A stretch of 33,116 nucleotides of DNA, taken from Thaumarchaeota archaeon S13 (GTDB taxonomy: Archaea; Thermoproteota; Nitrososphaeria; Nitrososphaerales; Nitrosopumilaceae). Location: positions 1-33,116 of the forward strand of contig RHFA01000102.1 of the NCBI GenBank assembly GCA_003724275.1. The letters run 5' to 3'. Positions 8,776-23,419 of this stretch are shown here, in pieces (the stretch's first letter is position 1; the number at the start of each line of letters is the position of its first letter). The translations under genes and the position numbers were made by a program. The notes below the pieces were generated by a model. The model worked only from the letters and a program-made list of their open reading frames with translations. It did not search any database and was not told the DNA's origin.

Positions 8776-8832
8776 CCTATGGCAAGCCCGCGCGGGGCCT
8801 CCCGCACGCGTGGGGCCGCCGGGATCCGGTAT

Positions 8833-8845
8833 TAAGTTTAATAAC
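8833..8845 (+). promoter_or_regulatory. TATA-like box TAAGTTTAATAAC for TSP3-repeat gene A
   Basis: The 11-nt core AAGTTTAATAA recurs upstream of all three repeat genes. ATG 8869 lies 25 nt after the core. Confidence 0.6.
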
Positions 8846-8868
8846 CCATCTGCCGGCGCCCCCCCGTG

Positions 8869-11802
8869 ATGTCCGCGAAGGGCCACAGGCTAGGCGTCGC
8901 GATCCTGCTCCTCTCCGTCCTTGCCGCCGCGCCGGCCCACCTCCCGGCCGGCTCGCAGCTGGTTCCTGACATCGACCGCGACGGCGTGCCGGACGCCACG
9001 GACATGTGCCCAAACCTGCCCGAGGACGGCATAGGCGACGCGACAGACGGCTGCCCGTCGCCGAGGACGCAGTGGCACGACTCGGACCGTGACGGGATCG
9101 CCGACGGCGTCGACGAGTGCCCGCTCTCGGCGGAGGTCTACAACGGCATCGAGGACGCCGACGGCTGCCCGGACGCCGCGCCGGGCATAGCCGCGCGCGG
9201 GCCGGCCGACTCGGACGGCGACGGGATTCCAGACGGGATCGACACGTGCCCGACGCGGCCCGAGACGCCGAACGGGATCATGGACTCTGACGGCTGCCCC
9301 GACGAGGCCGCGCCGGGACACGACTCGGACGGCGACGGCATCCGCGACTCGCTTGACGAGTGCCCGTTCGCCGAGGAGACGTTTAACAGGATTGACGACG
9401 CCGACGGCTGCCCCGACGGGGACGCCGGCCTGGCGTCCTCCGCGCCGGACTCGGACGGCGACGGCATCATTGACACTGTCGACAACTGCATACTCGCCGC
9501 CGAGACGCAGAACGGGTTTATGGACCTGGACGGGTGCCCCGACACCGCCGCCGACGCGCTTCCCGACACGGACGGCGACGGCGTGCACGACGGGCTTGAC
9601 ACGTGCCCCGACGAGGCCGAGACGTACAACAGGTTCCTTGACTCTGACGGCTGCCCCGACGAGAGGCCGCCGTACACGTCGGGCATCGGCGTTGACGCCG
9701 ACAGGGACCGCGTGCCCGACGACATCGACGAGTGCCCCGGCGAGGCAGAGCGCTACAACGGCTTTGAGGACGCAGACGGGTGCCCGGACATACCTCCGTA
9801 CGTGACTGTGTTTGACAGGGACTCTGACGGGATTGACGACGCCAACGACGAGTGCCCCGACTCGCCAGAGACATACAACCGGCACGAGGACGCCGACGGA
9901 TGCCCCGACTTTGTGGGCATTGAGAGCATAATCCACGACACTGACGGCGACGGAATCGCCGACCGAATGGACCTGTGCCCAAACCAGCCCGAGACGGCCT
10001 CTGGCGTGCAGCTTGACGGGTGCCCCGACAGGGGCCGCGCGCCGACGCTGGACACCGACGGCGACGGCGTGCCCAACGCGCTAGACGAGTGCCCGTCGTC
10101 ATTTGAGACGTACAACATGATAGACGACGGCGACGGCTGCCCCGACGAGGCGCCGGCCCAGCAGCCGCGCGACGCCGACGGCGACGGCATACCCGACGTC
10201 TCGGACTCTTGCGCGCTCTCGCCGGAGACGCGCAACGGCTACATGGACACCGACGGCTGCCCCGACGACGTCCCGTTTGAGGACACGGACTCTGACGGCA
10301 TAGCCGACCGCCTCGACGCGTGCCCCGACGCCGCGGAGACCTATAGGATAGGCGGGACGATCGACGGCTGCCCCGACGAGGCGACGGACCCCGACACGGA
10401 CTCTGACGGCATAGCCGACCGCCTCGACGCGTGCCCCGACGAGGCCGAGACGCAGAACGGCTTCCTTGACGCAGACGGCTGCCCCGACGAGGTGCCCGGG
10501 GCAAGCGCGGCGACTGACTCTGACGGCGATGGCATACCCGACGCCGATGACCTCTGCGTCGACGCCGCCGAGACGTACAACCAGCTAGACGACGCCGACG
10601 GCTGCCCTGACGTCGTGGTCAGCAGCAGGACGCAAAACCCCGACACCGACGGCGACGGGCTGCCTGACCGCCTTGACCTGTGCCCCTCGATACCCGAGGT
10701 CCGCAACGGCTTTATGGACAACGACGGCTGCCCTGACAGGGGAACGACGGCGGACTCTGACGGCGATGGCATACCCGACTCGCTTGACGAGTGCCCCGCG
10801 GACCCGGAGACGTTCAACCTCGTAGATGACGCCGACGGCTGCCCGGAGGACGCCGCGCCCGGCGGCGTCAACGACGCCGACGGCGACGGCCTCAACGACC
10901 TTGTGGACTCGTGCCCGCTGCGGCCAGAGACGATAAACGCGCACATGGACGACGACGGCTGCCCCGACGAGGTGCCGGCTCCGGACGCCGACTCGGACGG
11001 CGTGCCGGACTCGATGGACCTGTGCCCCGACGAGCCCGAGACGTGGAACCGCCACCTCGACTCGGACGGCTGCCCCGACGAGCGCCGCACGTTTGACGCC
11101 GACTATGACGGGATCCCCGACACCGTCGACGAGTGCCCCGAGCTGCGCGAGCTCTTTAACAACTTTGAGGACGAGGACGGCTGTCCCGACTCGGCCGGGC
11201 CGCCGACAGAGAGGGACACGGACCTTGACCGCATCCCAGACGCCGACGACGAGTGCCCGCTCCAGCCAGAGAGGTACAACGGGTTTGAGGACGCCGACGG
11301 CTGCCCCGACTCTGTCCTCGCCGAGAGGCGCGTCGCCGACTCGGACAGCGACGGGATACCCGACGCCGTGGACAGGTGCCCGACGAGGCCCGAGACTATC
11401 AACGGGATCAACGACAACGACGGCTGCCCCGACAGGGGCTCGACTGTGGCCGACACGGACGGCGACGGCATCCCGAACTCGCGGGACCTCTGCCCCCTCC
11501 AGGAGGAGACGTACAACCGCATACGCGACGCCGACGGCTGCCCTGATGGCGTGTCGCGCGACGGCCCGCCCGTGGTGGACACGGACTCTGACGGGATACC
11601 CGACGCGCAGGACATGTGCCCCGCCGAGGCCGAGGACCGCGACGGCGACCGCGACGCCGACGGCTGCCCCGACGCCGCCGGCCCGCCTGACGCCGACGGC
11701 GACGGCGTGCGCGACGAGGTCGACTCGTGCCCCACGGAGGCCGAGACGATAAACAGGTACATGGACGCCGACGGCTGCCCTGACACGCTTCCGGGAGGCT
11801 AG
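8869..11802 (+). CDS. Secreted thrombospondin type 3-like repeat protein, paralog A (24 units)
   Basis: Signal-peptide-like N-terminus MSAKGHRLGVAILLLSVLAAAPA. It is followed by 24 units of D-x-D-x-D-G-[IV]-x-D-x-x-D-x-C-P-x3-E-x2-N-x3-D-x-D-G-C-P-D, counted by hand as DGCP occurrences. The protein ends five residues after the last unit (..CPDTLPGG) with no anchor domain. GTG 8866 is an alternative start. Confidence 0.85.
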   Translation: MSAKGHRLGVAILLLSVLAAAPAHLPAGSQLVPDIDRDGVPDATDMCPNLPEDGIGDATDGCPSPRTQWHDSDRDGIADGVDECPLSAEVYNGIEDADGCPDAAPGIAARGPADSDGDGIPDGIDTCPTRPETPNGIMDSDGCPDEAAPGHDSDGDGIRDSLDECPFAEETFNRIDDADGCPDGDAGLASSAPDSDGDGIIDTVDNCILAAETQNGFMDLDGCPDTAADALPDTDGDGVHDGLDTCPDEAETYNRFLDSDGCPDERPPYTSGIGVDADRDRVPDDIDECPGEAERYNGFEDADGCPDIPPYVTVFDRDSDGIDDANDECPDSPETYNRHEDADGCPDFVGIESIIHDTDGDGIADRMDLCPNQPETASGVQLDGCPDRGRAPTLDTDGDGVPNALDECPSSFETYNMIDDGDGCPDEAPAQQPRDADGDGIPDVSDSCALSPETRNGYMDTDGCPDDVPFEDTDSDGIADRLDACPDAAETYRIGGTIDGCPDEATDPDTDSDGIADRLDACPDEAETQNGFLDADGCPDEVPGASAATDSDGDGIPDADDLCVDAAETYNQLDDADGCPDVVVSSRTQNPDTDGDGLPDRLDLCPSIPEVRNGFMDNDGCPDRGTTADSDGDGIPDSLDECPADPETFNLVDDADGCPEDAAPGGVNDADGDGLNDLVDSCPLRPETINAHMDDDGCPDEVPAPDADSDGVPDSMDLCPDEPETWNRHLDSDGCPDERRTFDADYDGIPDTVDECPELRELFNNFEDEDGCPDSAGPPTERDTDLDRIPDADDECPLQPERYNGFEDADGCPDSVLAERRVADSDSDGIPDAVDRCPTRPETINGINDNDGCPDRGSTVADTDGDGIPNSRDLCPLQEETYNRIRDADGCPDGVSRDGPPVVDTDSDGIPDAQDMCPAEAEDRDGDRDADGCPDAAGPPDADGDGVRDEVDSCPTEAETINRYMDADGCPDTLPGG
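8968..11784 (+). repeat. In-frame tandem coding repeat array, about 111-129 nt period (TSP3-like units) in paralog A
   Basis: The GACGGCTGCCC(C/G/T)GAC (DGCPD) core recurs 24 times. Units are imperfect at the DNA level except for the repeat pair at 10282/10393. Confidence 0.85.
10282..10441 (+). repeat. Perfect 49-nt direct repeat (10282-10330 and 10393-10441), offset 111 nt
   Basis: Both copies read gacacggactctgacggcatagccgaccgcctcgacgcgtgccccgacg. They encode DTDSDGIADRLDACPD in adjacent units. Flanking bases differ on both sides. Confidence 0.95.
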
Positions 11803-11881
11803 GGGCCCGCGCGATCGGCCTGATCGCAGGCCCCGCGCGGCCGCGCCGCGCCCATGGGCGCCCCGGGGCCGAATCCACCGA

Positions 11882-11894
11882 GAAGTTTAATAAT
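11882..11894 (+). promoter_or_regulatory. TATA-like box GAAGTTTAATAAT for TSP3-repeat gene B
   Basis: Same core as at 8833 and 13760. ATG 11920 lies 27 nt after the core. Confidence 0.6.
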
Positions 11895-11919
11895 CCCGCA
11901 CCGGGGGCGATCGGCAGTA

Positions 11920-13677
11920 ATGCGCAGCTATTGGGCACTGCTGGTGGCCGTGACGCTCGTGGCGTCTGCCCCCGCCGGCGCCCTTGCGCAGTACGGGGAC
12001 TCTGACATCGACTCTGACGGGGTTCCAAACGCGATCGACTCCTGCCCCCACGTCCGCGAGGACTTTGAGGGCGAGATCGACGGCTGCCCGTCGGACTTTG
12101 TCCAGTGGCAGGACTCTGACGCCGACGGCATAGAGGACAGGGTCGACGAGTGCCCCGCGGCCAGGGAGACGTACAACCGCCACCTCGACGCCGACGGCTG
12201 CCCGGACAGGGCGCCGGACACGGGGCGCTCGGTCACAGTCGACACGGACGGCGACGGCGTCATTGACATGCTTGACGTGTGCCCGACGACGCCAGAGACC
12301 CCCAACGGCATCCTCGACGGCGACGGCTGCCCGGACGGCATGGCGCCGGCGACGGACAACGACGAGGACGGGGTGCCAGACGGCGTTGACGCGTGCCCCT
12401 TTGAGCAGGAGACCTACAACCGGCACATGGACGGCGACGGCTGCCCCGACGAGGTCGAGGACGAGCGCGCGCAGTTCGAGTTTCCCGACGCCGACGGCGA
12501 CGGCATAGACGACAGGTGGGACCAGTGCCCCAACGAGGCCGAGAACCGCAACTCGTACCTCGACGGCGACGGCTGCCCCGACGAGCCTGGCGCCGAGTCT
12601 GACGCCGCAATGGCAGACTCGGACTTTGACGGAATACCGGACTCTGAGGACGCCTGCCCGGAGGACCGAGAAAACTTTAACCGCCACCTCGACGAGGACG
12701 GCTGCCCGGACACGCTGGACCTCACAACGTCCGCCGACACGGACCTTGACGGGATACTTGACAGCGTGGACATGTGCGTCCTTGTCGCCGAGGTCTACAA
12801 CATGGTCGACGACGAGGACGGCTGCCCGGACACGGTGCCCGTGGGCATCAACACGCCAGACTCGGACGGCGACGGGATATTTGACGCGGTGGACACGTGC
12901 CCCATAACGCCAGAGAACCGCAACGGCGTGCTAGACACGGACGGCTGCCCCGACTCTGATCCCATAGTCGGCGACTCGGACGTCGACGGCATACCCGACG
13001 ACAGGGACGAGTGCCCAATGGAGCCCGAGACGCACAACAGGTTTGAGGACGGCGACGGCTGCCCCGACTTTGTCGCCGATGACAGGGAGCAAAACCCCGA
13101 CACCGACGGCGACGGGCTGCCCGACCGCCTCGACCTCTGCCCCTCTGTCCCCGAGACGCGCAACGGCATACTCGACACGGACGGCTGCCCCGACAGGGGA
13201 ACCGTCCCGGACACCGACGGCGACGGGATACCAAACGACATGGACGCATGCCCGTCGCAGCTCGAGACGTTCAACATGATCGACGACTCTGACGGCTGCC
13301 CCGACGAGACGCCGGCGACGGCGGTCAACGACGCCGACGGCGACGGCATAGACGACATATCTGACATGTGCGCGCTGGTCCCGGAGAACCGCAACGGCTA
13401 CATGGACGATGACGGGTGCCCTGACATCCGGCCCCCGCCGGACGCCGACTCGGACGGCGTGCCCGACGGGGCCGACGCGTGCCCCGAGATGGAGGAGACG
13501 CGCAACGGCTACATGGACGCCGACGGCTGCCCCGACGAGCTTGCCCTCTCGGACGACCAGGCCGACACGGACAATGACGGTATCCGCAACTCTGCTGACG
13601 AGTGCCCCTCGGAGCCCGAGACGTGGAACAAGTTCGCCGACGATGACGGGTGCCCGGACTCGTTTCCGGAGGGCTAG
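11920..13677 (+). CDS. Secreted thrombospondin type 3-like repeat protein, paralog B (14 units)
   Basis: Track ORF 11854-13677. ATG 11920 gives MRSYWALLVAVTLVASAPAGALA/QYGD (signal peptide with AxA site), followed by 14 DGCP units. Ends ..CPDSFPEG with no anchor. Confidence 0.85.
   Translation: MRSYWALLVAVTLVASAPAGALAQYGDSDIDSDGVPNAIDSCPHVREDFEGEIDGCPSDFVQWQDSDADGIEDRVDECPAARETYNRHLDADGCPDRAPDTGRSVTVDTDGDGVIDMLDVCPTTPETPNGILDGDGCPDGMAPATDNDEDGVPDGVDACPFEQETYNRHMDGDGCPDEVEDERAQFEFPDADGDGIDDRWDQCPNEAENRNSYLDGDGCPDEPGAESDAAMADSDFDGIPDSEDACPEDRENFNRHLDEDGCPDTLDLTTSADTDLDGILDSVDMCVLVAEVYNMVDDEDGCPDTVPVGINTPDSDGDGIFDAVDTCPITPENRNGVLDTDGCPDSDPIVGDSDVDGIPDDRDECPMEPETHNRFEDGDGCPDFVADDREQNPDTDGDGLPDRLDLCPSVPETRNGILDTDGCPDRGTVPDTDGDGIPNDMDACPSQLETFNMIDDSDGCPDETPATAVNDADGDGIDDISDMCALVPENRNGYMDDDGCPDIRPPPDADSDGVPDGADACPEMEETRNGYMDADGCPDELALSDDQADTDNDGIRNSADECPSEPETWNKFADDDGCPDSFPEG
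11998..13659 (+). repeat. In-frame tandem coding repeat array (TSP3-like units) in paralog B
   Basis: 14 hand-counted DGCP units with the same unit architecture as paralogs A and C. Confidence 0.85.
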
Positions 13678-13759
13678 GGCATGACGGGCATGGCGACACC
13701 GGCAGGCCAGCGCGGAGCGGCGCCGGGCGTGCGGCCCGCGGCCGGCCCGGGGGGGCCGC

Positions 13760-13772
13760 GAAGTTTAATAAA
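13760..13772 (+). promoter_or_regulatory. TATA-like box GAAGTTTAATAAA for TSP3-repeat gene C
   Basis: Same core as at 8833 and 11882. ATG 13798 lies 27 nt after the core. Confidence 0.6.
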
Positions 13773-13797
13773 GAAGCGCGCGCGCAGCGCCGCGAAG

Positions 13798-16584
13798 ATG
13801 GGCAGATGCTGGGCGATCATGGCGCTGGCCGCCACGCTGCTCGTGTCGCTTCCCGCCGGCGCGATGGCGCAGGCGCCGGAGATTGACATCGACGGCGACG
13901 GCGTGCCGGACTCTGTAGACGAGTGCCCGCACGTCCTCGAGGACCGCGTCGGCGAGATCGACGGCTGCCCCTCGGACTTTGTCCCGTGGTACGACACGGA
14001 CAACGACGGGATCGAGGATCGCCTCGACCTCTGCCCGACCGTAAAGGAGCGCTACAACAGGCACCTTGACGAGGACGGCTGCCCGGACGTCGTGGTTGAG
14101 AGGGGCAGCGCCTCGCTGGCCGACACGGACGGCGACGGGTTTATCGACGTGCTCGACTCGTGCCCAAACGAGCCCGAGACGCCCAACGGCATACTCGACG
14201 GCGACGGCTGCCCGGACGACTATGTGCCACTGACGGACAATGACGAGGACGCCGTGCCGGACAGCGTCGACGCGTGCCCCTTTGAGCAGGAGACATACAA
14301 CCGCTTCATGGACGGCGACGGGTGCCCCGACGAGGTCGAGACGGAGCGCACGCAGTTCGAGTTTCCCGACAGCGACGGCGACGGCATAGACGACCGGTGG
14401 GACCAGTGCCCCGACGAGGCCGAGAACCGCAACTCGTACCTTGACTGGGACGGGTGCGCCGACGAGCCGGGCTTCACCTCGCGCGGCGCAGTCGACACGG
14501 ACTATGACAGCATTCCAGACTCTGAGGACAACTGCCCGGAGGAGCGCGAGATCTTTAACGGGCTGCTCGACTCTGACGGCTGCCCCGACGAGATCGCCGT
14601 CGAGCTGACCGGCGACATGGACCGCGACGGCGTCGCCGACAATGTCGACCTCTGCCCGCTGAGCCGCGAGGTCTACAACATGGTCAACGACGAGGACGGC
14701 TGCCCGGACACGGTGGCCGTCGGCTCGGTCACGCCCGACAGCGACGGAGACGGAATATTTGACATCGTCGACGTCTGCCCAATCACGCCCGAGGTGGTAA
14801 ACGGCTACATGGACACGGACGGCTGCCCAGACTCGACGAGGGCCGCCGGCGACGCCGACTCGGACGGCATAGCCGACCCTGATGACCTCTGCCCTACGAG
14901 GCCCGAGACATACAACAGGTTTGAGGACAGCGACGGGTGCCCGGACGACGTCGTGGCAGCCGCCACGGCCTTTGAGTTTCCCGACACCGACGGCGACGGC
15001 ATAGAGGACAGGTGGGACCAGTGCCCCAACGTGCCCGAGAACCGCAACTCGTACCTTGACTGGGACGGCTGCCCGGACACGCAGGGATATGACACGCAGA
15101 GCACGGCGCCGGACTCGGACTATGACGGCGTGCCCGACCCTGACGACCTGTGCCCCGGCATAGGCGAGCGCTACAACGGCTTTATGGACGAGGACGGCTG
15201 CCCTGACATCCCGCAGGTCCCGCGCAGCGGCGACGCGGACTTTGACGGCATCCTCGACCACGTCGACGAGTGCCCGCGCGAGCGCGAGACGTTCAACAGG
15301 ATCAACGACGGCGACGGCTGCCCCGACGGGGAGGAGACCGAGTTCATCGCGCCTGACAGCGACGGCGACGGCATTCTTGACGCGGCCGACTCGTGCCCGT
15401 CAAGGGCCGAGACGATCAACGGCATAGCCGACACGGACGGCTGCCCTGACCCCGACGCCGTCTCGGCTGACACGGACGGCGACGGCGTGCCGGACTCTGT
15501 AGACGAGTGCCCGACGTCCTTTGAGACGTACAACGCCATAGACGACGCCGACGGCTGCCCTGATGACAGCTCGGTCGCGCAGGCCCCCGAGTACAGCCCC
15601 GCTGACACCGACGGCGACGGCGTGCCGGACATGCGCGACCAGTGCCCAGAGGAGGAAGAGACGGCCAACGGCTACCTTGACTGGGACGGCTGCCCGGACA
15701 CCATGATCGAGCGCGCCTCGCAGACGGGTGACACCGACAGGGACGGCATCCCCGACCACGCCGACAGGTGCCCAATGGCCGCAGAGCGCTACAACGGGTT
15801 CCACGACGCCGACGGCTGCCCCGACATTGCGCCCTATGCGCCGTCGGCCTCGATGGACTCGGACTCTGATGGCATCCCGGACACAGCCGACGAGTGCCCC
15901 GGCGAGTTTGAGACGTACAACATGCACGAGGACGGCGACGGCTGCCCTGACACCGTGCTTGCGGGCAGCCAGATACCAGACACCGACGGCGACGGCATCA
16001 TTGACGTCTCTGACGTGTGCCCGACGCTGCGCGAGACGGTCAACGGCGTCAACGACTTTGACGGCTGCCCCGACGGCGTCGCGCCGCGCGGGGACGCCGA
16101 CTCGGACGGCGTGCCGGATCCCGACGACGAGTGCCCGCTAGAGCCCGAGACGCACAACAGGTTTGAGGACGCCGACGGCTGCCCCGACGAGGCCCCGACC
16201 GAGCGGGTCGGCTTTTCATACCCCGACACCGACGGTGACGGCCTCGATGACAGGCTTGACCAGTGCCGCACGGCCCCCGAGACGCCCAACGGCTACCTCG
16301 ACGGCGACGGCTGCCCCGACGTGATACCGGCCGGCCCGCTAGAGCCGACCAGGTCTGACACGGACGGCGACAACATACCCGACGGCGTGGACCTCTGCCC
16401 CGCGGCGCCAGAGACGTGGAACAAGTACCGCGACCACGACGGCTGCCCCGACACGACGCCCGAGCAGATGCGCCACCTCCTCGACTCGGACGCCGACGGC
16501 GTGCCGGACACGGCGGACATGTGCCCCGCCGAGGCCGAGGACCGCGACGGCGTCTCAGACGCCGACGGCTGCCCTGACCCCTAG
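13798..16584 (+). CDS. Secreted thrombospondin type 3-like repeat protein, paralog C (22 units)
   Basis: Track ORF 13681-16584. ATG 13798 gives MGRCWAIMALAATLLVSLPAGAMA/QAPE (signal peptide), followed by 22 DGC[PA] units. Ends ..DADGCPDP directly at the stop. Confidence 0.85.
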   Translation: MGRCWAIMALAATLLVSLPAGAMAQAPEIDIDGDGVPDSVDECPHVLEDRVGEIDGCPSDFVPWYDTDNDGIEDRLDLCPTVKERYNRHLDEDGCPDVVVERGSASLADTDGDGFIDVLDSCPNEPETPNGILDGDGCPDDYVPLTDNDEDAVPDSVDACPFEQETYNRFMDGDGCPDEVETERTQFEFPDSDGDGIDDRWDQCPDEAENRNSYLDWDGCADEPGFTSRGAVDTDYDSIPDSEDNCPEEREIFNGLLDSDGCPDEIAVELTGDMDRDGVADNVDLCPLSREVYNMVNDEDGCPDTVAVGSVTPDSDGDGIFDIVDVCPITPEVVNGYMDTDGCPDSTRAAGDADSDGIADPDDLCPTRPETYNRFEDSDGCPDDVVAAATAFEFPDTDGDGIEDRWDQCPNVPENRNSYLDWDGCPDTQGYDTQSTAPDSDYDGVPDPDDLCPGIGERYNGFMDEDGCPDIPQVPRSGDADFDGILDHVDECPRERETFNRINDGDGCPDGEETEFIAPDSDGDGILDAADSCPSRAETINGIADTDGCPDPDAVSADTDGDGVPDSVDECPTSFETYNAIDDADGCPDDSSVAQAPEYSPADTDGDGVPDMRDQCPEEEETANGYLDWDGCPDTMIERASQTGDTDRDGIPDHADRCPMAAERYNGFHDADGCPDIAPYAPSASMDSDSDGIPDTADECPGEFETYNMHEDGDGCPDTVLAGSQIPDTDGDGIIDVSDVCPTLRETVNGVNDFDGCPDGVAPRGDADSDGVPDPDDECPLEPETHNRFEDADGCPDEAPTERVGFSYPDTDGDGLDDRLDQCRTAPETPNGYLDGDGCPDVIPAGPLEPTRSDTDGDNIPDGVDLCPAAPETWNKYRDHDGCPDTTPEQMRHLLDSDADGVPDTADMCPAEAEDRDGVSDADGCPDP
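13885..16578 (+). repeat. In-frame tandem coding repeat array (TSP3-like units) in paralog C
   Basis: 22 hand-counted units. The first nine are collinear with those of paralog B. Confidence 0.85.
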
Positions 16585-17606
16585 CCGCTAATCCAGCCGA
16601 GCCTTCTAAAGTAGAGGTACATTATGCCGGCGGGCACGACTGAGGCCAGTATGACAAGGAGGAACGTCGTGTGCGGGCCGCCGCCCCCAGAGTCGCCGCT
16701 TCCGCCGGGAAGGCTGACGTTCATCCCATAGAACGTCCCTATCACGGTGGCGGGTATGGCCAGCGTGAATATGATGGTCAGGACGGCGAGGACCTTGCTG
16801 GCCTTTTCCGTGCTTAGGACAAAGTCGGTGTCCTTGTAAATCTCCATGGTCTCCTTTGACTCCTCGAGCGTGTCTATGGCCTTGTCAATGTGGTCTATCA
16901 CGTCGTCAAAGTGAAGCGTGAGGTCCTCTCCCGGAGAGTAGCTCGCAATGTTCTTGGCGGCCCCGAGGACTATGCGCTTTAGGGGGCTGGCTATCCTCCG
17001 CAGGACGGTGATCTCGCGCCTGAGGACGTGGATGTCCTTTGCGACTGACTTGCTCTCGTCAAAGACGTCGTCCTCTATGTCGTCAAGGTTTGCCATCACG
17101 CGCCGCAGCGTGTGGAGCAGGTCGTCCACTAGCACGTCGATTATCTCGTGGAGGAGGACGGCCGTGGAGCTTGACATGAGGCGATCGCGCCTCTCGGGGT
17201 CAATGCCCCCCTTGCATGCCCTCACCAGGTCGACGAGGGGCTTTAGGTTTCCCTGGTGGACCGTTATGAGAAAGCCCCTGCCCACGAATATCGAGAGCTG
17301 GTTGTGCTTTGGTATGGCCTCCTTTGCCACGATTGGGGGAAAGTGGAGTATGAGGAACATGTGGTCAGAGTACGCGTCCAGCTTTGGAAGCTCGAACTTT
17401 GTCAGGCAGTCCTCCACGTTCAGGGCGTTAAAGCCGTACTCTGCGGCCAGCCTCTCGACGTTCTCCCTGTCGGGGTTTTGCAGGTCAATCCACACAAACC
17501 CCCTGCCGTCCATCCTCTCGACCTTGCGCTCGTCGAGGGCACCGTCGTCCCTGGGCCTCCTCCTCCTGCCCGACCAGAGCCTCTTTGCTATGGAGCTGCG
17601 GCTCAT
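16581..17606 (-). CDS. corA: CorA-family magnesium/cobalt transporter
   Basis: C-terminal LAIPATVIGTFYGMNV (the YGMN signature between two TM helices) and a CorA-like soluble N-terminal domain (FVWIDLQNPD, FLITVH). Its stop shares the palindrome CTAG (16581-16584) with the stop of paralog C. Confidence 0.9.
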   Translation of the reverse strand: MSRSSIAKRLWSGRRRRPRDDGALDERKVERMDGRGFVWIDLQNPDRENVERLAAEYGFNALNVEDCLTKFELPKLDAYSDHMFLILHFPPIVAKEAIPKHNQLSIFVGRGFLITVHQGNLKPLVDLVRACKGGIDPERRDRLMSSSTAVLLHEIIDVLVDDLLHTLRRVMANLDDIEDDVFDESKSVAKDIHVLRREITVLRRIASPLKRIVLGAAKNIASYSPGEDLTLHFDDVIDHIDKAIDTLEESKETMEIYKDTDFVLSTEKASKVLAVLTIIFTLAIPATVIGTFYGMNVSLPGGSGDSGGGGPHTTFLLVILASVVPAGIMYLYFRRLGWISG

Positions 17607-17627
17607 TGCGCCGCGCCCCGCACTGCC

Positions 17628-17637
17628 AATTATAAAA
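17628..17637 (-). promoter_or_regulatory. TATA-like box for corA (TTTTATAATT on the minus strand)
   Basis: AT-only decamer 22 nt upstream of ATG 17606. Confidence 0.5.
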
Positions 17638-17664
17638 CTGATCGCGCGCGCGGGCCGCGGCGGG

Positions 17665-17672
17665 CTTAAATT
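17665..17672 (+). promoter_or_regulatory. TATA-like box CTTAAATT for the ArdC-like gene
   Basis: AT-rich octamer 22 nt upstream of ATG 17694, in the divergent corA intergenic region. Confidence 0.4.
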
Positions 17673-17693
17673 CGGCGTCGCGCGGGTACGTCG

Positions 17694-18725
17694 ATGGGCA
17701 GGACACGCAAGCCCGCGCCCCGCGCGAGGCCCTCGGGAAACACGCCCCGCGCCGACCTCGTCCTGCGCCGCCTTGTTGACGAGTTCAAGAGCGGGGGGAT
17801 CACCGAGACCATCAGCAAGGTGGCCATCCTGAAGGACCCCAACGACAACCGCCCGTGCATGTCATGGTCCCTCAAGAACCGCGTGCTCATGGTGGGGCAG
17901 GGCACGTTTGACGCCAGGAACGTCGCGCAGTGGAACAGGGTCAACCGCAGGGTCATCGCGCGCAGGTCTGCAATCTATATCATAAAGCCGCTCTATGCGT
18001 ACTCGTGCGCGCACTGCGCAAAGGGCGCCGCGCGCGAGGCGCACCTCCGCTACGCAAGGCCATCGGGCCTCTTTGAGTGCGCGGCATGCGGCCTCTCGGT
18101 GGAGCCGCGCGCGGTCCGCGGCGGGTCTGATCCTGCCGTCCTGCGCAGAATCCGCGGGTTTGGGTGCCAGCCGGAGTTTCGCGTCGAGGACACGGTGGGC
18201 GACGCGCTTCCCGAGTACGCGCCCGCACGCCCGCCGCCGCTCCACGGCGTCGCCGCAAAGTGGGGCATACAGGTCAAGTACCAGGTGGATCCGAGCGGGT
18301 CGAGCCTTGGAAGCTATGAGGCGCGCTCGAACACCATACACCTCGGCACCGAGAGCCCTTGGGTCTTTTTTCACGAGATAAGCCACGCCGCAGACAGCAT
18401 GGTCCTTGCGCGCTCGGGGCGCGCGCTAAAGGGCGGCCAGGATCCCATCCAGGAGGCCGTCGCGCAGCTCTCGGCATGCGTCCTCTCAGAGATGTACGGC
18501 ATGGGCTCCACTCGCGCGCACACGCGCGACTATATCCGCGCCCAGGCCAGGGGATCAGGCGAGCGCGAGCTCGTGCGCCTCGCGCTTGACGTGCTAGACA
18601 GGGTCGAGGGCGTGCTTGGCCTCATTCTCTCCACGGCGCAGGAACTTGGCGGCGCCACGGCGTCAGGCCAGGAGGATGGCCATTGCGGCGACGGCGCACG
18701 AGCCGGCAAAATACGGGACCATTAG
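17694..18725 (+). CDS. ArdC-like protein: ArdC-N-like ssDNA-binding domain, CxxC...CxxC zinc ribbon, and C-terminal HExxH zincin metallopeptidase domain
   Basis: The N-terminal half (PCMSWSLKNRVLM ... ARNVAQWNRVNRRVIARRSAIYIIKP) resembles the ArdC-N pattern (PY.G.N..LL ... W.TF.QA..LGG.V.KGEK). CAHC...CAAC is a zinc-ribbon-like insert. The C-terminal FFHEISHA followed by QEAVAQLSACVLSEMYGM resembles the ArdC/polyvalent-protein metallopeptidase motif HE..HW...EELVAELGAAFL. Confidence 0.6.
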   Translation: MGRTRKPAPRARPSGNTPRADLVLRRLVDEFKSGGITETISKVAILKDPNDNRPCMSWSLKNRVLMVGQGTFDARNVAQWNRVNRRVIARRSAIYIIKPLYAYSCAHCAKGAAREAHLRYARPSGLFECAACGLSVEPRAVRGGSDPAVLRRIRGFGCQPEFRVEDTVGDALPEYAPARPPPLHGVAAKWGIQVKYQVDPSGSSLGSYEARSNTIHLGTESPWVFFHEISHAADSMVLARSGRALKGGQDPIQEAVAQLSACVLSEMYGMGSTRAHTRDYIRAQARGSGERELVRLALDVLDRVEGVLGLILSTAQELGGATASGQEDGHCGDGARAGKIRDH

Positions 18726-19358
18726 CGGGATCACGGATATGACATACTCTGTCCGGGCCATGATCTCCGCCGAGTCCGGCGGGCCGGGAAGGAGGGCCAG
18801 CCTCCTGCGCCCCCCGCGCGTCACCTCGCCCGCAAAGCAAAACCTCTCGCCCCGCCTCCTCCGGCGGACCACGAGGAGCGCGGCGGCCTTGCGGATCGCC
18901 GGCTCGTCAACGCCGCCAAATATGCTCCCCGTGCGCGCAAGCTCGGCGAGGTTTGGCACGACGGTGCGCGCAATGTGCGCGGCCCCGGCGGCCAGGGCGG
19001 CCACGAGCATGGCCACGGGAAGGGCGGGAATCCCCGCCGCGCTGGGGACCAGGACGCCAGAGATGGCGATCATGGCCGCGTCCCCCCTGGCCACCAGGGT
19101 GCCGCGCAGCGACATGGCGCCCACGGCGCACGCGACGCCCATCCACGCGGCGTCGTGCGGCTGCGGCCACGCCCCCTGCGCGGCCCAGCGCACGGCGAGG
19201 AACGCCGCGCACGCGACTCCCATGAGCGCCAGGGCCCAGTGCGGGATTCCGCGCTCGCGCAGGTCATAGAGCGCCGCCACTCCCACCATGGACGCGGCCA
19301 GGACGGCGCCTGCGGCGGCCCCGTCTAGCAACCCGCGTCCCCCGCCGCGCACGCGCAC
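18663..19358 (-). CDS. Archaeal prepilin/preflagellin peptidase (aspartic peptidase family A24, PibD/FlaK-like)
   Basis: Polytopic hydrophobic protein with two candidate catalytic Asp motifs, YDLRERGIP and ARGDAAMIAISG, about 60 residues apart, as in A24 enzymes (D...GxGD). The second motif is ARGD rather than GxGD. The track start is GTG 19358. An alternative TTG at 19331 would put the first Asp at residue 23. Confidence 0.65.
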   Translation of the reverse strand: MRVRGGGRGLLDGAAAGAVLAASMVGVAALYDLRERGIPHWALALMGVACAAFLAVRWAAQGAWPQPHDAAWMGVACAVGAMSLRGTLVARGDAAMIAISGVLVPSAAGIPALPVAMLVAALAAGAAHIARTVVPNLAELARTGSIFGGVDEPAIRKAAALLVVRRRRRGERFCFAGEVTRGGRRRLALLPGPPDSAEIMARTEYVISVIPLMVPYFAGSCAVAAMAILLA

Positions 19359-20143
19359 GTGATCAGCCGCGAGGCGCCCTCGAGCGTGTCGCGCTCGTCA
19401 ATGACGGCGTGCAGGGACGAGAGGACGTGGGAGTTTCGCGCAAAGAGCGGGTGCGCGTGGTCCGGGGATATTATGGCGCAGCGCATGCTCTTGTTGACCG
19501 TGATCATCCCCTGCCCCTCGAGCTCCCAGAGGGCGCGCATGATCTTGGTCTTGCTGCACTCTGGAAACTTTCGGGCGCACATCATTGCGGTGCACGGGAT
19601 GGACATGACTGCCCTTGTGCGCCTGACGCCGGCATGGCATGCGCACCCGTCGCCGCAGACCGTGGCGTTCTCTGGCCTCTGTGCGCCGTACGAGCTCACA
19701 ACCGAGGCCACGCACAGCGCAAAGGGGCTGAGGCGCCACCGCAGCGCAAACGCCGCCCACCGGCCCGCAGGGGTGAGCCTCATGCAGACCATCTTTTTCC
19801 GGTCGCCGGGCACGGGGATTCCCATCCCGCGCGCGTCAGTCAGCAGCACAAACCCCTCGGGCATGTCCGCGCGGCCTGCGCACCTCTCAACCTCCACAAG
19901 GCACGTCGAGCGCATCATGTCGCGAAAGCCCCTAAACCCGCGCATCTCGCCGTGCAGGACTGCCATGCTTGAAGTCCCGGAGCTCTCGCCCACGAGCAGC
20001 AGGATGAGGAGCCTGTGCAGGCGCCCGCCGAGCTTCACCCCCCTGACGCCCAAGAGCCCGCCGGCGCCGCTCGTGCGCGCGCCTCGCGAGGCGGGGACAA
20101 ACGTCCCGTCCTCAAAGCTTCTCTGAACTGAGGATGCACACAT
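19325..20143 (-). CDS. Cys-rich hypothetical protein with a possible C-terminal winged-helix segment and a degenerate P-loop-like motif
   Basis: It sits in an overlapping minus-strand gene chain. Composition is balanced, unlike the Ser/Pro/Arg-rich plus-strand ORF 19359-20126, which shares wobble positions and is probably its shadow. LLILLLVGESSGTSSM resembles a Walker A context lacking the Lys. KTKIMRALWELEGQGMITV looks wHTH-like. Cys clusters: CGDGCACH, CTAMMC, CACAAGDAGC. Confidence 0.45.
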   Translation of the reverse strand: MCASSVQRSFEDGTFVPASRGARTSGAGGLLGVRGVKLGGRLHRLLILLLVGESSGTSSMAVLHGEMRGFRGFRDMMRSTCLVEVERCAGRADMPEGFVLLTDARGMGIPVPGDRKKMVCMRLTPAGRWAAFALRWRLSPFALCVASVVSSYGAQRPENATVCGDGCACHAGVRRTRAVMSIPCTAMMCARKFPECSKTKIMRALWELEGQGMITVNKSMRCAIISPDHAHPLFARNSHVLSSLHAVIDERDTLEGASRLITCACAAGDAGC

Positions 20144-21227
20144 GCAGCTTTCTCCTCTTTAGCTCTGGAACCAGCTTTTCCAGCTCTGACGGCTTGAACT
20201 CGCCAATGTGGATCACGCCCTTTCTTGCGCGCATGAACTTTATGGACCTTGCGGGCACCTGGTATATCCCCTCCTCGCCGTCTATTCGCCTTGCGTACAC
20301 CACGCCCTCGCCCTCCGAGTCCTCCAGGAGGTATGCGCGCATCTTTGAGTCGACATAGATCGTCGACCCGTGCGGGCACTTGAATGCTATCCTCCTGCTG
20401 CCTGCGGGCGCCTTGGAGCCGGCCTCGACCATGGTTCCCTCCTCCGGCGCGCCTGCCTCCTCCCCGTCGCCGCGCGCGGGCCTGCCCCGCGTCCCCTCGC
20501 TGCGCGTCATTAGCGTGACAGACACGGGCTCCTCCTCGACGACGTCCTTCCTGCTGTTGTGCGTCTGCCTGATGCGGGCCTCCATCATGGTGGGCCACAC
20601 AAACCTGTGCTCAGACCCGCCGCTCGTCTCGCCCACAATCTCGCGAAGCGCAATGGCGGCGTCGTGCTGCGAGTCCACGTGCTGCCTAAAGACCCACTCT
20701 AGGAGCGACATGGGAAACGTGTGGTGCACCTCATAGTAGACGGCCGACAGGTCCTTGATCAGGCACCCCAGCTCGTCAAGAGCGCTCTCGTTCACCGTGA
20801 ACTGCAGTATCCTCGACGTGAGCCTGTTCATGCTCAGCCGCCCCAATATCGACTCGTCGCTGTCGTTGAGCTTTCTCATGTACACTATGGCCCGCAGGAG
20901 CTGCACGGGGTTTGGGGGCGCGTTCATGTTGTGGCGCACGTGCATCGCGATCACCTCCTGCTCGCTTTTGGCCTTGTGGACCCTTGCGGCTATGGTCTTC
21001 TTGCCGCTCCTGCGGTGGGCCTCGACTATGAGGTGCCCGTCGATTATGTACTTGTGGTCGCCAAGGGTCGCCACCACCACGGTCTTTTCCGTGCCATTCT
21101 TGGCGATGTCAGCGGAGACGTGCGCGGTCTGCTTGCGCGAATGCATGTGTATGTGGACGGGCGCCCCCTCCAGCTCGTCTATCCTGAGGGTTCGAAGCCC
21201 GCCCTGCTCGCCGCCCTTGCCGCTCAA
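20112..21227 (-). CDS. ParB/sulfiredoxin-fold N-terminal domain protein with an unknown C-terminal domain
   Basis: LRIDELEG ... VVVATLGDHKYIIDGHLIVEAHRRSGKKTIAARV matches the ParB N-terminal (ParBc) pattern: I..L ... PV.V ... Y.I.DGHHR..A....G...I...V. It is followed by a helical region, an acidic Gly/Glu linker, and a roughly 90-aa beta-rich C-terminal domain. The TTG start at 21227 overlaps the upstream stop as TTGA. Confidence 0.6.
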   Translation of the reverse strand: MSGKGGEQGGLRTLRIDELEGAPVHIHMHSRKQTAHVSADIAKNGTEKTVVVATLGDHKYIIDGHLIVEAHRRSGKKTIAARVHKAKSEQEVIAMHVRHNMNAPPNPVQLLRAIVYMRKLNDSDESILGRLSMNRLTSRILQFTVNESALDELGCLIKDLSAVYYEVHHTFPMSLLEWVFRQHVDSQHDAAIALREIVGETSGGSEHRFVWPTMMEARIRQTHNSRKDVVEEEPVSVTLMTRSEGTRGRPARGDGEEAGAPEEGTMVEAGSKAPAGSRRIAFKCPHGSTIYVDSKMRAYLLEDSEGEGVVYARRIDGEEGIYQVPARSIKFMRARKGVIHIGEFKPSELEKLVPELKRRKLHVCILSSEKL

Positions 21228-22054
21228 TACCTGACGTCCCCCCTCACGGAATCAAAGACGCGGTTTCCCAGGACGGCGCGAAAAGTGCCCCTCGTGCGGT
21301 TCTTTTCGCTCATCGAGGCCGGGAACGTCGAGTACTTTTGGCGTGCCTTCCTCCACAGCATCTCCCTGTCACGGCCGTCGAGGCCAAGGTTCCTCGACGC
21401 CGCGTTGAGAAAGGTGTTAAAGTAAAAGCCAGGCGCACTGTACCCGCTGTAGAGGCCGAGCCTCCTCGCGTCGACTGCGAGCATGCCGTATATCTTTAGG
21501 GCGCTGTGGGTGCTCCGGAGGTTGCAGCAGTCCCCGATGGCGGCCCGCAGGTCGGCCTCGTTTATGACGCATGCGCCCCTCTCGCGGCACGTGTTGTAAA
21601 AGGCGAAAAACAGTATGTGTGACGGGCGGTGGCCCGTGTTGCGCCTGAGCCTGGAAAAGACAAACTCCACCTCGCTCCTCACGGACTCCATGATCCCAAA
21701 GCGCTCGGCAATGTGGCGTATCCTCTGGCGCCACACGCGGTCCGCATTGCCCTTCCCGTACACGACCCTTGCCTTGCCGCGCAGCCTCGGGCTTGCGGTC
21801 CCTAAAAGCTCCGGCACGCCTGCGGCGCCCCGCAGGGGGGCAGTGCGCCCGTCATCCTCGTGCGAGGAGGCTCCTGCCCACTCTATCCTCCCCACGACAT
21901 TCCCAAACACCCTGCACACAATCTCGCCCTCCCCCTCGCACTGGACCAGGCAGCGGGTCCCGTGATACGCGCACCTCGACTCTGGCGCCTGCGGGTGCCG
22001 TGCGGCGCCCCCAAAGGCGGCCATGCGGGAGTTTTGCGCCTGACGCGTCTCCAT
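21224..22054 (-). CDS. Divergent TFB/TFIIB-like transcription factor paralog with a degenerate zinc ribbon
   Basis: CAYHGTRCLVQCEGEGEIVCRVFGNVVGRIEW aligns to the TFB ribbon/B-reader pattern CPEC....L..D...GE.VC..CG.V..E..., but with CxxH and Phe replacing Cys ligands. LLGT is linker-like. The cyclin-like core SHILFFAFYNTCRERGACVINEADLRAAIG compares with AA.LY.ACR..G.PRTL.EI. Confidence 0.55.
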   Translation of the reverse strand: METRQAQNSRMAAFGGAARHPQAPESRCAYHGTRCLVQCEGEGEIVCRVFGNVVGRIEWAGASSHEDDGRTAPLRGAAGVPELLGTASPRLRGKARVVYGKGNADRVWRQRIRHIAERFGIMESVRSEVEFVFSRLRRNTGHRPSHILFFAFYNTCRERGACVINEADLRAAIGDCCNLRSTHSALKIYGMLAVDARRLGLYSGYSAPGFYFNTFLNAASRNLGLDGRDREMLWRKARQKYSTFPASMSEKNRTRGTFRAVLGNRVFDSVRGDVRY

Positions 22055-22080
22055 ATCCTCGCCTTGCCATGAAAATACTA

Positions 22081-22093
22081 GTTATTAAATTTG
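22081..22093 (-). promoter_or_regulatory. TATA-like box for the TFB-like operon (AAATTTAATAAC on the minus strand)
   Basis: It contains the same TTTAATAA core as the TSP3 gene promoters, 27 nt upstream of ATG 22054. Confidence 0.55.
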
Positions 22094-22205
22094 TCCATCA
22101 GCTCTGAAATCCGCACCTGGGCCCAGGCGTGGGCGGGGCTCCCAGGAACAGGCCCCCTGCGCGGGGGCGCCCGCGCCTGGCCGCCCCCTGCGCCCGTGGG
22201 GCCCC

Positions 22206-22943
22206 CTAGAGGAGGATCTCCGTGGCGTTCCTGCCCTCCTCGGTGAGCGAGACCCAGCGGTTCCTGCCCACCTTTTTGACCTCGACAAACCCCCACGCCT
22301 CCAGCGGCCGTATTATCCCCTTGTCAAGCATGGCAAACCTGGCCTGCGAGTAGTTGGCCCCCGTCGAGCCCACGCTTATGATCCCCTGCCTGTCGGCCGC
22401 CTCGGCGAGCTCCTTTTTTGTGATCTTGCCGCCCCTCTCGGCCATGATGCCGAGCGTCCTGACAAGCCTCTCCTCGGGAATCCTGATCTCGTACGAGGGT
22501 ATCGGGACGATCTCCCTTATGCCCGTGGAGGCCGGCTCGCCCTCAAAGCCGGCATAGTCACGGGCCTCGGCGTAGAACGGCTTGACGCCCCTGCCCTCGC
22601 CAAACATCATTGCGGCCATCATGCCGGCCACGGCCTGTATCTTTGAGCCCGACGCGAGGTTCACAAAGACGTCGTTGCCCTCCTCCCTCTCGAGTATGCC
22701 CCTGACGGCCCTGATGATCCCAAAGAGCGACCGCCGGTCATGGGCCTCGCGGGCAACGGCGATCCCCTCGCCCTCTAGGGCCGCGGCGACGCGCTCGATT
22801 ATGCCCGTGGCCCTGTCCTCGTTTGGCTTGTCGTGGACGAGCAGCCACACGCGCTCGGCCTTTAGCTCCACTGCGGGCAAGACTATGCGGTCAATCTCGT
22901 ACCCCACTGGCGCCACGTGGACGCGTGCCCTTACCAGCCCCAT
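22206..22943 (-). CDS. Transcriptional regulator: N-terminal Rossmann-like (Csa3/CARF-like, HFX_2341/DUF6293-like) domain plus C-terminal winged helix
   Basis: Track ORF 22206-23183. ATG 22943 (MGLVRARVHVAPVGYEIDRIVLPA) follows an AT-rich box. VHVAPVGYE...RVWLLV...VFVNLASGSKIQAVAGMMAA is the beta-alpha pattern of Csa3-type ligand-binding domains. The C-terminus KITKKELAEAA...GFVEVKKVGRNRWVSLTEEG is a typical wHTH. The fold assignment is by eye only. Confidence 0.5.
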   Translation of the reverse strand: MGLVRARVHVAPVGYEIDRIVLPAVELKAERVWLLVHDKPNEDRATGIIERVAAALEGEGIAVAREAHDRRSLFGIIRAVRGILEREEGNDVFVNLASGSKIQAVAGMMAAMMFGEGRGVKPFYAEARDYAGFEGEPASTGIREIVPIPSYEIRIPEERLVRTLGIMAERGGKITKKELAEAADRQGIISVGSTGANYSQARFAMLDKGIIRPLEAWGFVEVKKVGRNRWVSLTEEGRNATEILL

Positions 22944-22987: not shown

Positions 22988-23005
22988 TTGCCCGATCTGG
23001 CAGGC

Positions 23006-23419
23006 ATGGGACAGTCGATCGCCCTGGACACGTGCGTGGTGATAGCAATGCTCGAGAGGCCCGGCCTGGCGAGGTCGCTGCGCTCGTCCCTGAGGGGCAA
23101 GCGGGCCGGCGTGGTCCTGCCCGACACGGTCCTCTCTGAGGTCCGACGCGTGCGCGGGCATGGGGCCCGGACTGTCCTGGCAAGGGTGGAGCGCCTCCTT
23201 GGCCGCCGCGTCTCGGTCGCCGTCACGGGGGCCGCGCACAGGAGGCACGCCGGCGAGATACGCTCGCGCTATGCAGTGTGCCACGCCGGCGACAACCTGA
23301 TCGTGGCCGTCTGCTCCTCGCTCGACCTCGTCCTCGTCACGTTTGACCGCATGCTATTGCAGGCCTGCTCGTTTGTGGGCATCGCCGCGCTCCACCCTGC
23401 CGAGATGGGGGGGCTCTAG
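23006..23419 (+). CDS. PIN-domain ribonuclease (VapC-like), no adjacent antitoxin ORF recognised
   Basis: The four conserved acidic positions appear in order: IALDTCVV, TVLSEVRR, HAGDNLIVA, LVTFDRML. Size is about 137 aa. ATG 23006 is in frame within track ORF 22988-23419. Confidence 0.7.
   Translation: MGQSIALDTCVVIAMLERPGLARSLRSSLRGKRAGVVLPDTVLSEVRRVRGHGARTVLARVERLLGRRVSVAVTGAAHRRHAGEIRSRYAVCHAGDNLIVAVCSSLDLVLVTFDRMLLQACSFVGIAALHPAEMGGL

Follow-up and report, generated by a model that had tools for sequence, protein, structure and literature searches.

The locus examined here raises the question of what holds together four overlapping minus-strand genes, labelled A to D, whose predicted products are a paralogue of the basal transcription factor TFB, a ParB-like protein, a winged-helix protein and an A24-type prepilin peptidase. 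The genes lie on contig RHFA01000102.1 of Thaumarchaeota archaeon S13 (GenBank assembly GCA_003724275.1), of which positions 1 to 33,116 were analysed and are called the window throughout. An initial annotation, made from the letters and a list of open reading frames (ORFs), did not recognise the combination and proposed (a) a unit derived from a plasmid or an integrative and conjugative element (ICE), (b) a regulatory circuit for surface structures, or (c) a defence or exclusion module. In our assessment, genes A to D are probably a chromosomally fixed copy of the TFIIB/ParB-like/winged-helix core cassette of thaumarchaeal ICEs, a cassette that can also include the A24 peptidase, arranged as one operon and most likely co-opted.

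Operon layout and coding evidence

The four genes (Table 1) are chained by their starts and stops. Genes A and B share the letters TTGA (junction gtaTTGAgc), with the TGA stop of A at 21224-21226 and the TTG start of B at 21225-21227 giving a 4-nucleotide (nt) overlap; B and C overlap by 32 nt (20112-20143); and C and D overlap by 34 nt if D begins at GTG 19358, or by 7 nt if it begins at TTG 19331. The TTG is favoured as the start of D because the orthologues in loci L008 and L010 (loci are cited by L numbers) begin with MLD at the equivalent TTG, with the same 7-nt overlap with C.

The window is 67% GC, and GC-rich DNA favours long ORFs. Nevertheless, A to D are real genes and not GC-rich phantom ORFs, since the GC content at third codon positions (GC3) in their minus-strand frames is 0.82-0.88, close to the 0.81 of corA, since their products are conserved in other genomes by tblastn, and since their ratio of nonsynonymous to synonymous substitution rates (dN/dS), measured against two relatives of about 80% identity, is 0.22-0.37 (corA, 0.05-0.06). 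Long antisense ORFs, such as those at 19359-20126 and 20721-21425 on the plus strand, were set aside as GC-rich artefacts, since homology points to the minus-strand frames, as does the GC1>GC2 pattern.

A scan of the window for patches with at least nine A/T in ten positions returned 17, several of them directly upstream of gene starts. The patch ahead of gene A is the sole intergenic AT-rich patch of the operon; none was found at the starts of B, C or D, and the two that lie within gene A (21417-21427 and 21489-21498) encode the conserved residues FYFN and ALKIYG. Each of the eight orthologous loci compared has kept a TATA element (TTTAAT or AATTTA, then ACTAGT) ahead of gene A, in the forms AAATTTAATAAC, TTAAATTTATCAA and TTTTAATTTATTAAC, and these loci include ones of 36% and 54% GC. 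Given the distance of about 27 nt between the box and the ATG, the mRNA should be leaderless or near-leaderless, with a transcription start that we infer from this spacing. G-rich, Shine-Dalgarno-like runs, overlapping coding sequence, precede the starts of B, C and D. The initial annotation had described the four ORFs, each of the overlaps and the lone TATA-like box, and was accurate on all of them. The simplest reading of the overlaps and the one conserved promoter is that this promoter would yield a single near-leaderless polycistronic mRNA for all four genes, with translation probably coupled through the start/stop overlaps.

Assignment of the four proteins

The protein calls for A to D rest on family profiles or structure models, as the window sequences are insufficient singly; single-sequence scans of A, B and C against Pfam, NCBIfam and PADLOC gave no significant match. 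The initial annotation had called the products a TFB-like factor with a degenerate zinc ribbon, a ParB-fold protein, a Cys-rich orphan resembling a winged helix-turn-helix (wHTH) protein and an A24 prepilin peptidase. Profile searches, together with the structural comparisons made for A and C, upheld all four assignments.

On profile and model evidence, the product of gene A was verified as a divergent TFIIB/TFB paralogue. A family profile that includes remote positional homologues (A17) matched human TFIIB in the PDB with an E-value of 1.7e-7, all 11 of its matches being TFIIB or TFB, and the alignment to human TFIIB covers the ribbon (TFIIB residues 10-45) and the first cyclin repeat. The AlphaFold2 (AF2) model, made with 14 homologues, has a predicted local distance difference test score (pLDDT) of 75-90 over residues 101-276, nine helices and three short N-terminal strands; its ribbon part is of low confidence and its second cyclin repeat seems one helix short. 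When this model was searched with Foldseek, the best 18 matches were all TFIIB chains of RNA polymerase II pre-initiation complexes or TFIIB/TFB cores (top match 8s52_M, E 8.7e-5, 266 columns), the Pyrococcus woesei TFB core 1d3u_B aligned over 185 columns with a template modelling (TM) score of 0.48, and Brf1, cyclin C and Brf2 came lower in the list. The putative ribbon ligands in the window's clade are C28, H31, C35 and C47, with Phe replacing the last Cys (the second CxxC reads CRxF), as the degenerate ribbon of the initial annotation implied; the remote homologues in L014, L015 and L019-L022 have a CxH...CxxC ribbon. As a single protein, A found no match in Pfam, NCBIfam or the PDB, Pfam scans of the close family gave sub-threshold matches only, and the L016 homologue matched Pfam TFIIB below threshold (E 0.0034). 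PDB profile searches using close-family alignments only gave no usable match, and their matches to TRIM B-boxes, an antifreeze protein and the designed repeat protein RBL4 were treated as chance.

The N-terminal domain of gene B was verified as a predicted ParB/Srx fold. The window protein by itself falls below every Pfam threshold, and the assignment comes from its relatives: a word-indexed search of 5.8e9 proteins with B returned 11 clusters and a HMMER profile search of 1.84e9 representative proteins returned 50, many of them full-length at 340-390 amino acids (aa). B matched the PHROG ParB-like family (E 7.6e-5), Pfam ParB_N was found in 7 of the 49 family members scanned (best 6e-21), and a broad family profile matched Helicobacter pylori ParB (4umk, 4.2e-4), sulfiredoxin (5.9e-4) and Noc, with SerK appearing only above E = 1. 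The C-terminal domain is conserved across the family as well. The position of the GERRxR cytidine triphosphate (CTP) motif reads DGHLIV(EA) in B, without the arginines, which makes a canonical CTP switch unlikely. Residues D63, G64 and H65 are invariant in the close family and vary in distant members (DGHxR, NGH, NDF). For a partner nucleoside triphosphatase (NTPase), either ParA or actin-like ParM, no ATPase gene was found among the scanned window proteins or the syntenic chromosomal loci, and a repeat search around the operon gave no centromere-like array, only GC-rich chance pairs. B had no tblastn match among plasmids and phages, and as IMG/VR scans with two B subfamilies were also empty, there is no evidence of viral origin.

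Gene C was verified, from its structural model, as a protein of two winged-helix domains. The AF2 model (pLDDT 76, predicted TM-score 0.76) consists of these and a helical core whose LTxxGRW motif is common to the C family, and Foldseek returned solely ArsR/MarR-type wHTH regulators (E 0.04-0.5, probability close to 1). At 27.7 bits against a threshold of 25.6, the positional homologue in L015 is a Pfam TrmB match. Neither Foldseek against the PDB and BFVD nor a PDB profile search gave anything more specific than winged helix, and matches to AspA (4rs8, E 0.77) and RPC62 (probability 0.08) were too weak to be used. The Cys-rich stretch that had caught the initial annotation's attention is limited to the chromosomal Nitrosopumilaceae-type clade and absent from element-borne homologues. 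Modelled with low confidence, it may be a candidate metal or redox site gained after fixation.

Gene D was verified by sequence comparison as an A24-type (FlaK/PibD-like) GxGD aspartyl membrane peptidase. Its own match to Pfam Peptidase_A24 (PF01478) reaches 22.5 bits (E 1.6e-4), below the 26.5 threshold, and 3 of 7 close members match that family at E<=1 (best 1.5e-4); the L016 homologue, linked to it by profile at E 1e-17, scores 31 bits and passes. Across eight sequences, at identities as low as 22%, the catalytic residues D23 (YDLRERGIP) and D84 (ARGDAAM) do not vary, and the second motif reads RGD, MGD or EAD. Kyte-Doolittle analysis gives about 5-6 hydrophobic segments, with spans at approximately 1-24, 28-51, 85-125 (two segments) and 196-222. 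Residues 126-195 are predicted to form a basic domain in the cytoplasm. A tblastn search of plasmids with D found no match. D resembles FlaK/PibD in having two conserved Asp residues about 61 residues apart, a GxGD-like motif, a polytopic membrane topology and a cytoplasmic insert, the FlaK catalytic pair being D18/D79 at that same spacing; it differs in being sub-threshold in Pfam and in carrying a basic insert, RRRRGERFCFAxE...GGRRRL, specific to the D family.

We would like to note a 1021-aa plus-strand protein at 247-3312, which has no Pfam match and whose N-terminus, ...GVRG|LVGAILAAVIVMAVMG, looks by eye like a class III (prepilin-like) signal. It is a possible candidate substrate of D, encoded about 16 kb away.

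Conserved linkage and chromosomal inheritance

The initial annotation had proposed checking whether the four genes stay linked in other genomes, and they do. The order A-B-C-D recurs in independent genomes of 36% to 67% GC and is kept in about 20 loci, over which B identity falls from 100% to about 18%. The block of A-B-C-D, the convergent 343-aa gene that follows and corA is intact in L001/L005, L006, L003, L004, L008, L010, L011 and L012, and shorter contigs carry only its start (A-B in L009; A-B and part of C in L013). When one genome per GTDB species was scanned, relatives of B at 51-52% identity turned up in two complete metagenome-assembled genomes (MAGs) labelled Cenarchaeum sp., a genus placed in Nitrososphaerota, and more distant B copies are held by loci with amoC nearby. 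The upstream neighbours change by clade, from CARF-wHTH and PIN genes in the close one to NurA/HerA/Mre11/Rad50 in Cenarchaeum and amoC with pterin genes in the distant loci. At every locus examined, A to D have intact reading frames.

At the chromosomal loci that have diverged most, identity is 71-74% for corA, 46-52% for A, 38-40% for B and 31-34% for C, and across loci the divergence ranks of A to D track that of corA. As the identities of all genes in the block fall in the same rank order, the block has been vertically co-inherited. In a crude midpoint-rooted neighbour-joining tree, the chromosomal clade forms one monophyletic branch among many deep branches, and it accounts for 2 of the 50 B-family clusters (clustered at 50% identity). 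In the window's lineage, which is Cenarchaeum-like and of Nitrosopumilaceae type, the cassette is chromosomal, syntenic with corA and under purifying selection.

The surroundings of the operon were searched for traces of a mobile element. No VirB4, VirD4 or VirB6/TadC was found among the window proteins scanned or in 17-kb syntenic loci, and domains of integrase or VirB4/VirD4 type were likewise absent from the scanned proteins and from the gene table of the syntenic locus L004. The window contains no tRNA, and searching for repeats near the operon gave no flanking direct repeats (att) of note. Housekeeping or symbiont-typical genes flank the operon (corA, STT3, eIF2-alpha, cobalamin genes and giant thrombospondin-repeat proteins). 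It is this lack of transfer genes and integrase among the scanned proteins and of a tRNA, together with the host-like composition, the purifying selection and the monophyly of the clade, that argues for chromosomal fixation.

One further locus deserves mention. In L011 the cassette lies on an ENA contig of 1,226,937 bp, 36% GC at the locus, that looks like the complete, tiny genome of an ammonia oxidiser. The genome of Ca. Nitrosopelagicus brevis, similar in size, had no integrated mobile elements in a 2019 survey (PMC6563490).

Remote copies and mobile-element context

Outside the chromosomal clade, remote copies with 18-27% B identity lie on unrelated low-GC contigs. At 18-24% B identity, all four genes are found in L014, L016/L017 and L019; other remote loci have A-B-C (L015, L018, L020) or A-B (L021, L022). 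Four short loci came from the metagenome scan. A tyrosine integrase adjoins the cassette in L015 (E 9e-17). L016, an 82-kb metagenomic contig, carries together with the cassette an N6/N4 methyltransferase, MazE, an actin-like ATPase and, at 16512-19631, a 1039-aa VirD4/TraG-like protein (TrwB_AAD_bind, 22.4 bits against a threshold of 20.5). At 6054-6458 the same contig encodes a 134-aa protein whose hydrophobic N-terminus is pilin-like. L016 probably represents a conjugative element of archaea that has yet to be described. Genes for actin-like (ALP/ParM-type) ATPases lie 0.3-2.5 kb downstream of the cassette (L014 4436-5323 and L016 14958-15788), which suggests an actin-based partition motor in the mobile versions that was lost from the chromosomal version.

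These contexts agree with what has been published on thaumarchaeal ICEs. All of them carry TFIIB homologues, mostly directly upstream of a ParB-like gene and likely in one operon with it (PMC6563490); the TFIIB-ParB coupling was called specific to thaumarchaeal ICEs, and a prepilin peptidase is among their conserved components (Krupovic et al. 2019, PMC6563490). In the supplementary table of that work, NitNCS1-E3 has the order TFIIB, ParB-like arCOG01875, a 199-aa hypothetical protein and an actin-like ATPase, and NCAV2-E2 has the same triad, then VirB4, with overlapping starts (PMC6563490). The layouts of L014 and L016 match these two. Hypothesis (a) of the initial annotation, a plasmid or ICE origin, is therefore well supported by both the published TFIIB-ParB signature and the remote cassettes in integrase- or VirD4-bearing contexts. 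The impression that the combination was undescribed goes too far: TFIIB-ParB and a prepilin peptidase in ICEs had been published in 2019, and what is new here is the recurrent three- or four-gene cassette and its long-lived, transfer-less chromosomal version in Nitrosopumilaceae-type archaea.

Origin and role of the cassette

In the mobile versions, if known systems are a guide, the TFB paralogue would bring RNA polymerase to promoters specific to the element, the ParB-like protein would join with its double-wHTH partner in a DNA-binding complex for maintenance or regulation, the actin-like ATPase that is often adjacent could serve as the motor of that complex, and the A24 peptidase would mature class III signal-peptide pilins for transfer. 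The window's lineage lacks the transfer genes, the motor ATPase and the integrase among the proteins scanned, and what is left is the cassette and an ArdC-like gene, passed on vertically beside corA. Since the cassette has been retained in this position under purifying selection and without transfer genes, it has most likely been co-opted. One option is a regulatory unit driven by the TFB paralogue, with the ParB/wHTH pair binding DNA and D acting as a class III signal peptidase for the cell.

Several points weigh against this account. The direction of transfer is unrooted, and ICEs may instead have captured a cellular operon; the dN/dS values of A to D are 4-6 times that of corA, which slow decay of a relic would fit too; and internal promoters could still operate within the operon, whose co-transcription is read from its layout. 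Three of the four remote contexts are short contigs without assigned host or mobility. D does not adjoin C in L015, in L018 or in two published ICEs, and is thus a frequent and not an obligatory member. Finally, homology between the window cassette and the published ICEs is judged from architecture, lengths and neighbours and not from direct alignment.

Capture in the reverse direction, that is, an ancestral cellular operon of ammonia-oxidising archaea (serving, e.g., chromosome organisation, segregation or the cell cycle) that ICEs later acquired, is the alternative we take most seriously, although we hold it to be unlikely. It would sit well with the strict corA synteny, kept although corA itself falls to 71% identity, with the purifying selection on A to D, with a cassette on a 1.23-Mb, 36% GC contig resembling a streamlined genome, and with the lack of an att site, tRNA or integrase. 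However, the chromosomal clade makes up only 2 of the 50 family clusters while the others sampled are in mobile-element-like contexts, the neighbouring gene is ArdC-like, a class otherwise met here on plasmids, and the cassette has neither a partner NTPase nor, in B, the GERRxR switch of chromosomal ParB. Somewhat less probable again is a fully domesticated host system in Nitrosopumilaceae-type ammonia oxidisers, including sponge symbionts, with a TFB regulon, a CTP-independent ParB-like and wHTH pair for chromosome organisation or segregation, and a cellular A24 class III peptidase. To our knowledge, no segregation machinery has been described in this lineage. We give slightly less weight still to the surface-structure circuit, that is, hypothesis (b), in which the TFB paralogue would activate pilin-like or adhesin genes, the A24 peptidase would process their products and B and C would co-regulate them. 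D does retain both catalytic Asp residues, the product of 247-3312 has a class III-like signal by eye, and of the regulators encoded in archaeal type IV pilus loci, TFIIB homologues are met most often (Makarova et al. 2016, PMC4858521). Nevertheless, neither the scanned window proteins nor the syntenic loci yielded a pilus ATPase or platform gene, pilus secretion ATPases are reported to be missing from N. maritimus (PMC4858521), the candidate substrate is about 16 kb off, and the circuit leaves ParB and wHTH unexplained.

The remaining two readings fare worse. That A to D are a decaying, functionless remnant of an old ICE insertion seems very unlikely to us: the transfer genes are indeed gone, dN/dS is several-fold above that of corA, A has lost its second ribbon Cys pair and B lacks the arginine motif, but all four frames are intact in every locus examined, many columns, those of the catalytic residues among them, are unchanged even where B falls to about 40% and C to about 30% identity, the promoter and overlaps are conserved, and dN/dS is well under 1. 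Least credible of all is hypothesis (c), for example a retained ICE repressor/partition set that silences or excludes related elements. Its appeal lies in the adjoining CARF-wHTH (Csa3-like) gene and PIN toxin, found in the close clade only, and in the adjacent ArdC-like gene. The CARF and PIN neighbours are missing, however, from the Cenarchaeum MAGs and the more distant loci, no nuclease or abortive-infection effector is evident, and PADLOC matched none of A, C and D and gave B a single non-significant match (Cas10_Id, E 0.035), which leaves the defence proposal of the initial annotation without support.

If the ICE origin that we favour is correct, the two-gene TFIIB-ParB signature of these elements would extend to a TFB, a ParB-like protein, a double wHTH and often an A24 peptidase, and such a cassette, once the transfer machinery was lost, would have persisted for long as an operon of the chromosome in a lineage of archaea abundant worldwide, making a clear case of co-option of mobile-element control genes. 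The private basal factor and the non-canonical ParB would then be candidates for roles in the poorly understood gene regulation and chromosome handling of ammonia-oxidising archaea. Archaeal ICEs have core proteins that elude standard Pfam annotation, and the cassette would serve as a handy marker in the search for such elements.

Other genes in the window

The 343-aa protein encoded convergently with D has a single-stranded DNA (ssDNA)-binding N-domain, a CxxC...CxxC ribbon as an insertion and a HEISH zincin motif that does not vary. In a tblastn search of plasmids it matched, at 33% identity, two genes on Alicyclobacillus plasmids (E 4e-30 and 7e-30), of which one is annotated as an ArdC-like ssDNA-binding domain protein. 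In Pfam the window protein had no match, and one orthologue matched MPTase-PolyVal weakly (E 0.028). The gene is syntenic in every Nitrosopumilaceae-type locus that reaches beyond D, and from these comparisons it appears to be an archaeal chromosomal ArdC-like gene, the second gene of mobile-element type co-inherited with the cassette.

Immediately upstream of the operon lies the CARF-wHTH gene, whose listed ORF runs to 23183 but whose homologues begin at 22943. The CARF/PIN pair occurs only in the closest relatives (L004, L008, L009 and L010), and no CRISPR-Cas genes were seen. On the plus strand at 8866-16584 are three tandem genes for large proteins of 978, 607 and 967 aa with thrombospondin type 3 repeats (E 1e-33 to 1e-57), which are eukaryote-like and typical of sponge symbionts. 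This region has a strong A-over-T skew of +0.21 to +0.26 and a recurrent motif, AAGTTTAATAA, at 8830-8844 (before the 8866 start), 11883-11895 and 13761-13775, the latter two copies being located about 30 and 80 nt past the starts of the other two listed ORFs.

Table 1. Positions and properties of the operon and of neighbouring features in the window (domain limits are predicted)
Feature	Position	Strand	Description
Gene A	21224-22054	minus	276 aa, ATG start
Gene A domains			degenerate N-terminal zinc ribbon; disordered linker 57-100; two cyclin-like helical repeats 101-276
Gene B	20112-21227	minus	371 aa, TTG start
Gene B domains			ParB/Srx N-domain ~12-120; helical middle; low-complexity linker ~235-280; conserved C-terminal domain 281-371 (FKCPHGS...)
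Gene C	19325-20143	minus	272 aa, ATG start
Gene C domains			winged helices ~40-102 and 186-227; helical core between with conserved LTxxGRW
Cys-rich stretch of C	19631-19669	minus	NATVCGDGCACHA; C residues 159-171; lineage-specific insertion
Gene D	18663-19331 or 18663-19358	minus	222 aa (TTG start) or 231 aa (GTG start)
AT-rich promoter patch	22079-22094	minus	ACAAATTTAATAACTA; ends ~25 nt before the gene A ATG at 22054
TATA box	22082-22089	minus	TTTAATAA; ~27 nt before the gene A ATG; purine-rich upstream flank
ArdC-like gene	17694-18725	plus	343 aa; convergent with D, 63-nt 3' overlap
CARF and winged-helix (Csa3-like) gene	22206-22943	minus	Pfam HFX_2341_N and DUF6293_C; PADLOC CARF3, E 3e-68
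PIN-domain gene	22988-23419	plus	divergent from the CARF-wHTH gene

Comparison with known systems

Pairs of a ParB-type protein and a small DNA-binding partner are familiar from other conjugative elements. In RK2 (IncP), the ParB-family protein KorB and its small helix-turn-helix partner KorA control both transcription and maintenance of the element; that system differs from the present one in being bacterial, in the nature of KorB, a CTP-dependent clamp that has the arginine motif missing from B, and in having no basal-factor paralogue. An archaeal counterpart is the AspA-ParB-ParA partition cassette of pNOB8, from the Sulfolobus conjugative plasmids, reportedly described by Schumacher et al. 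in 2015. A small winged-helix protein and an adaptor with a ParB N-domain are encoded together there too, on an archaeal conjugative element, but the wHTH gene comes first, the motor is a Walker ParA, and there is neither a TFB nor a peptidase. AspA and C show no significant sequence match (4rs8 reaches only E 0.77).

The archaeal type IV pilus loci (arCOG01981, arCOG05559; PMC4858521) resemble the operon in placing a divergent TFB paralogue beside type IV filament genes that include an A24 peptidase. In contrast to the operon, they carry a pilus ATPase, a platform protein and pilins and have no ParB-like gene.

The closest likeness is to the thaumarchaeal ICEs (PMC6563490; Abby et al. 2018, PMC5797428), which belong to the same host phylum. 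In these, a TFIIB gene lies directly upstream and overlaps the ParB-like gene (about 340-390 aa), a third gene of about 190-230 aa comes next, a prepilin peptidase is encoded within the element and an actin-like ATPase or VirB4/VirD4 nearby, and the remote homologues of the window cassette show exactly those neighbours. The published ICE description makes no mention of a winged-helix third gene or of a fixed chromosomal version. The window copy differs from the ICEs in being chromosomal, in lacking VirB4/VirD4/VirB6/TadC, an integrase and an att site, in being inherited vertically beside corA, and in having the peptidase joined into the operon as its fourth gene.

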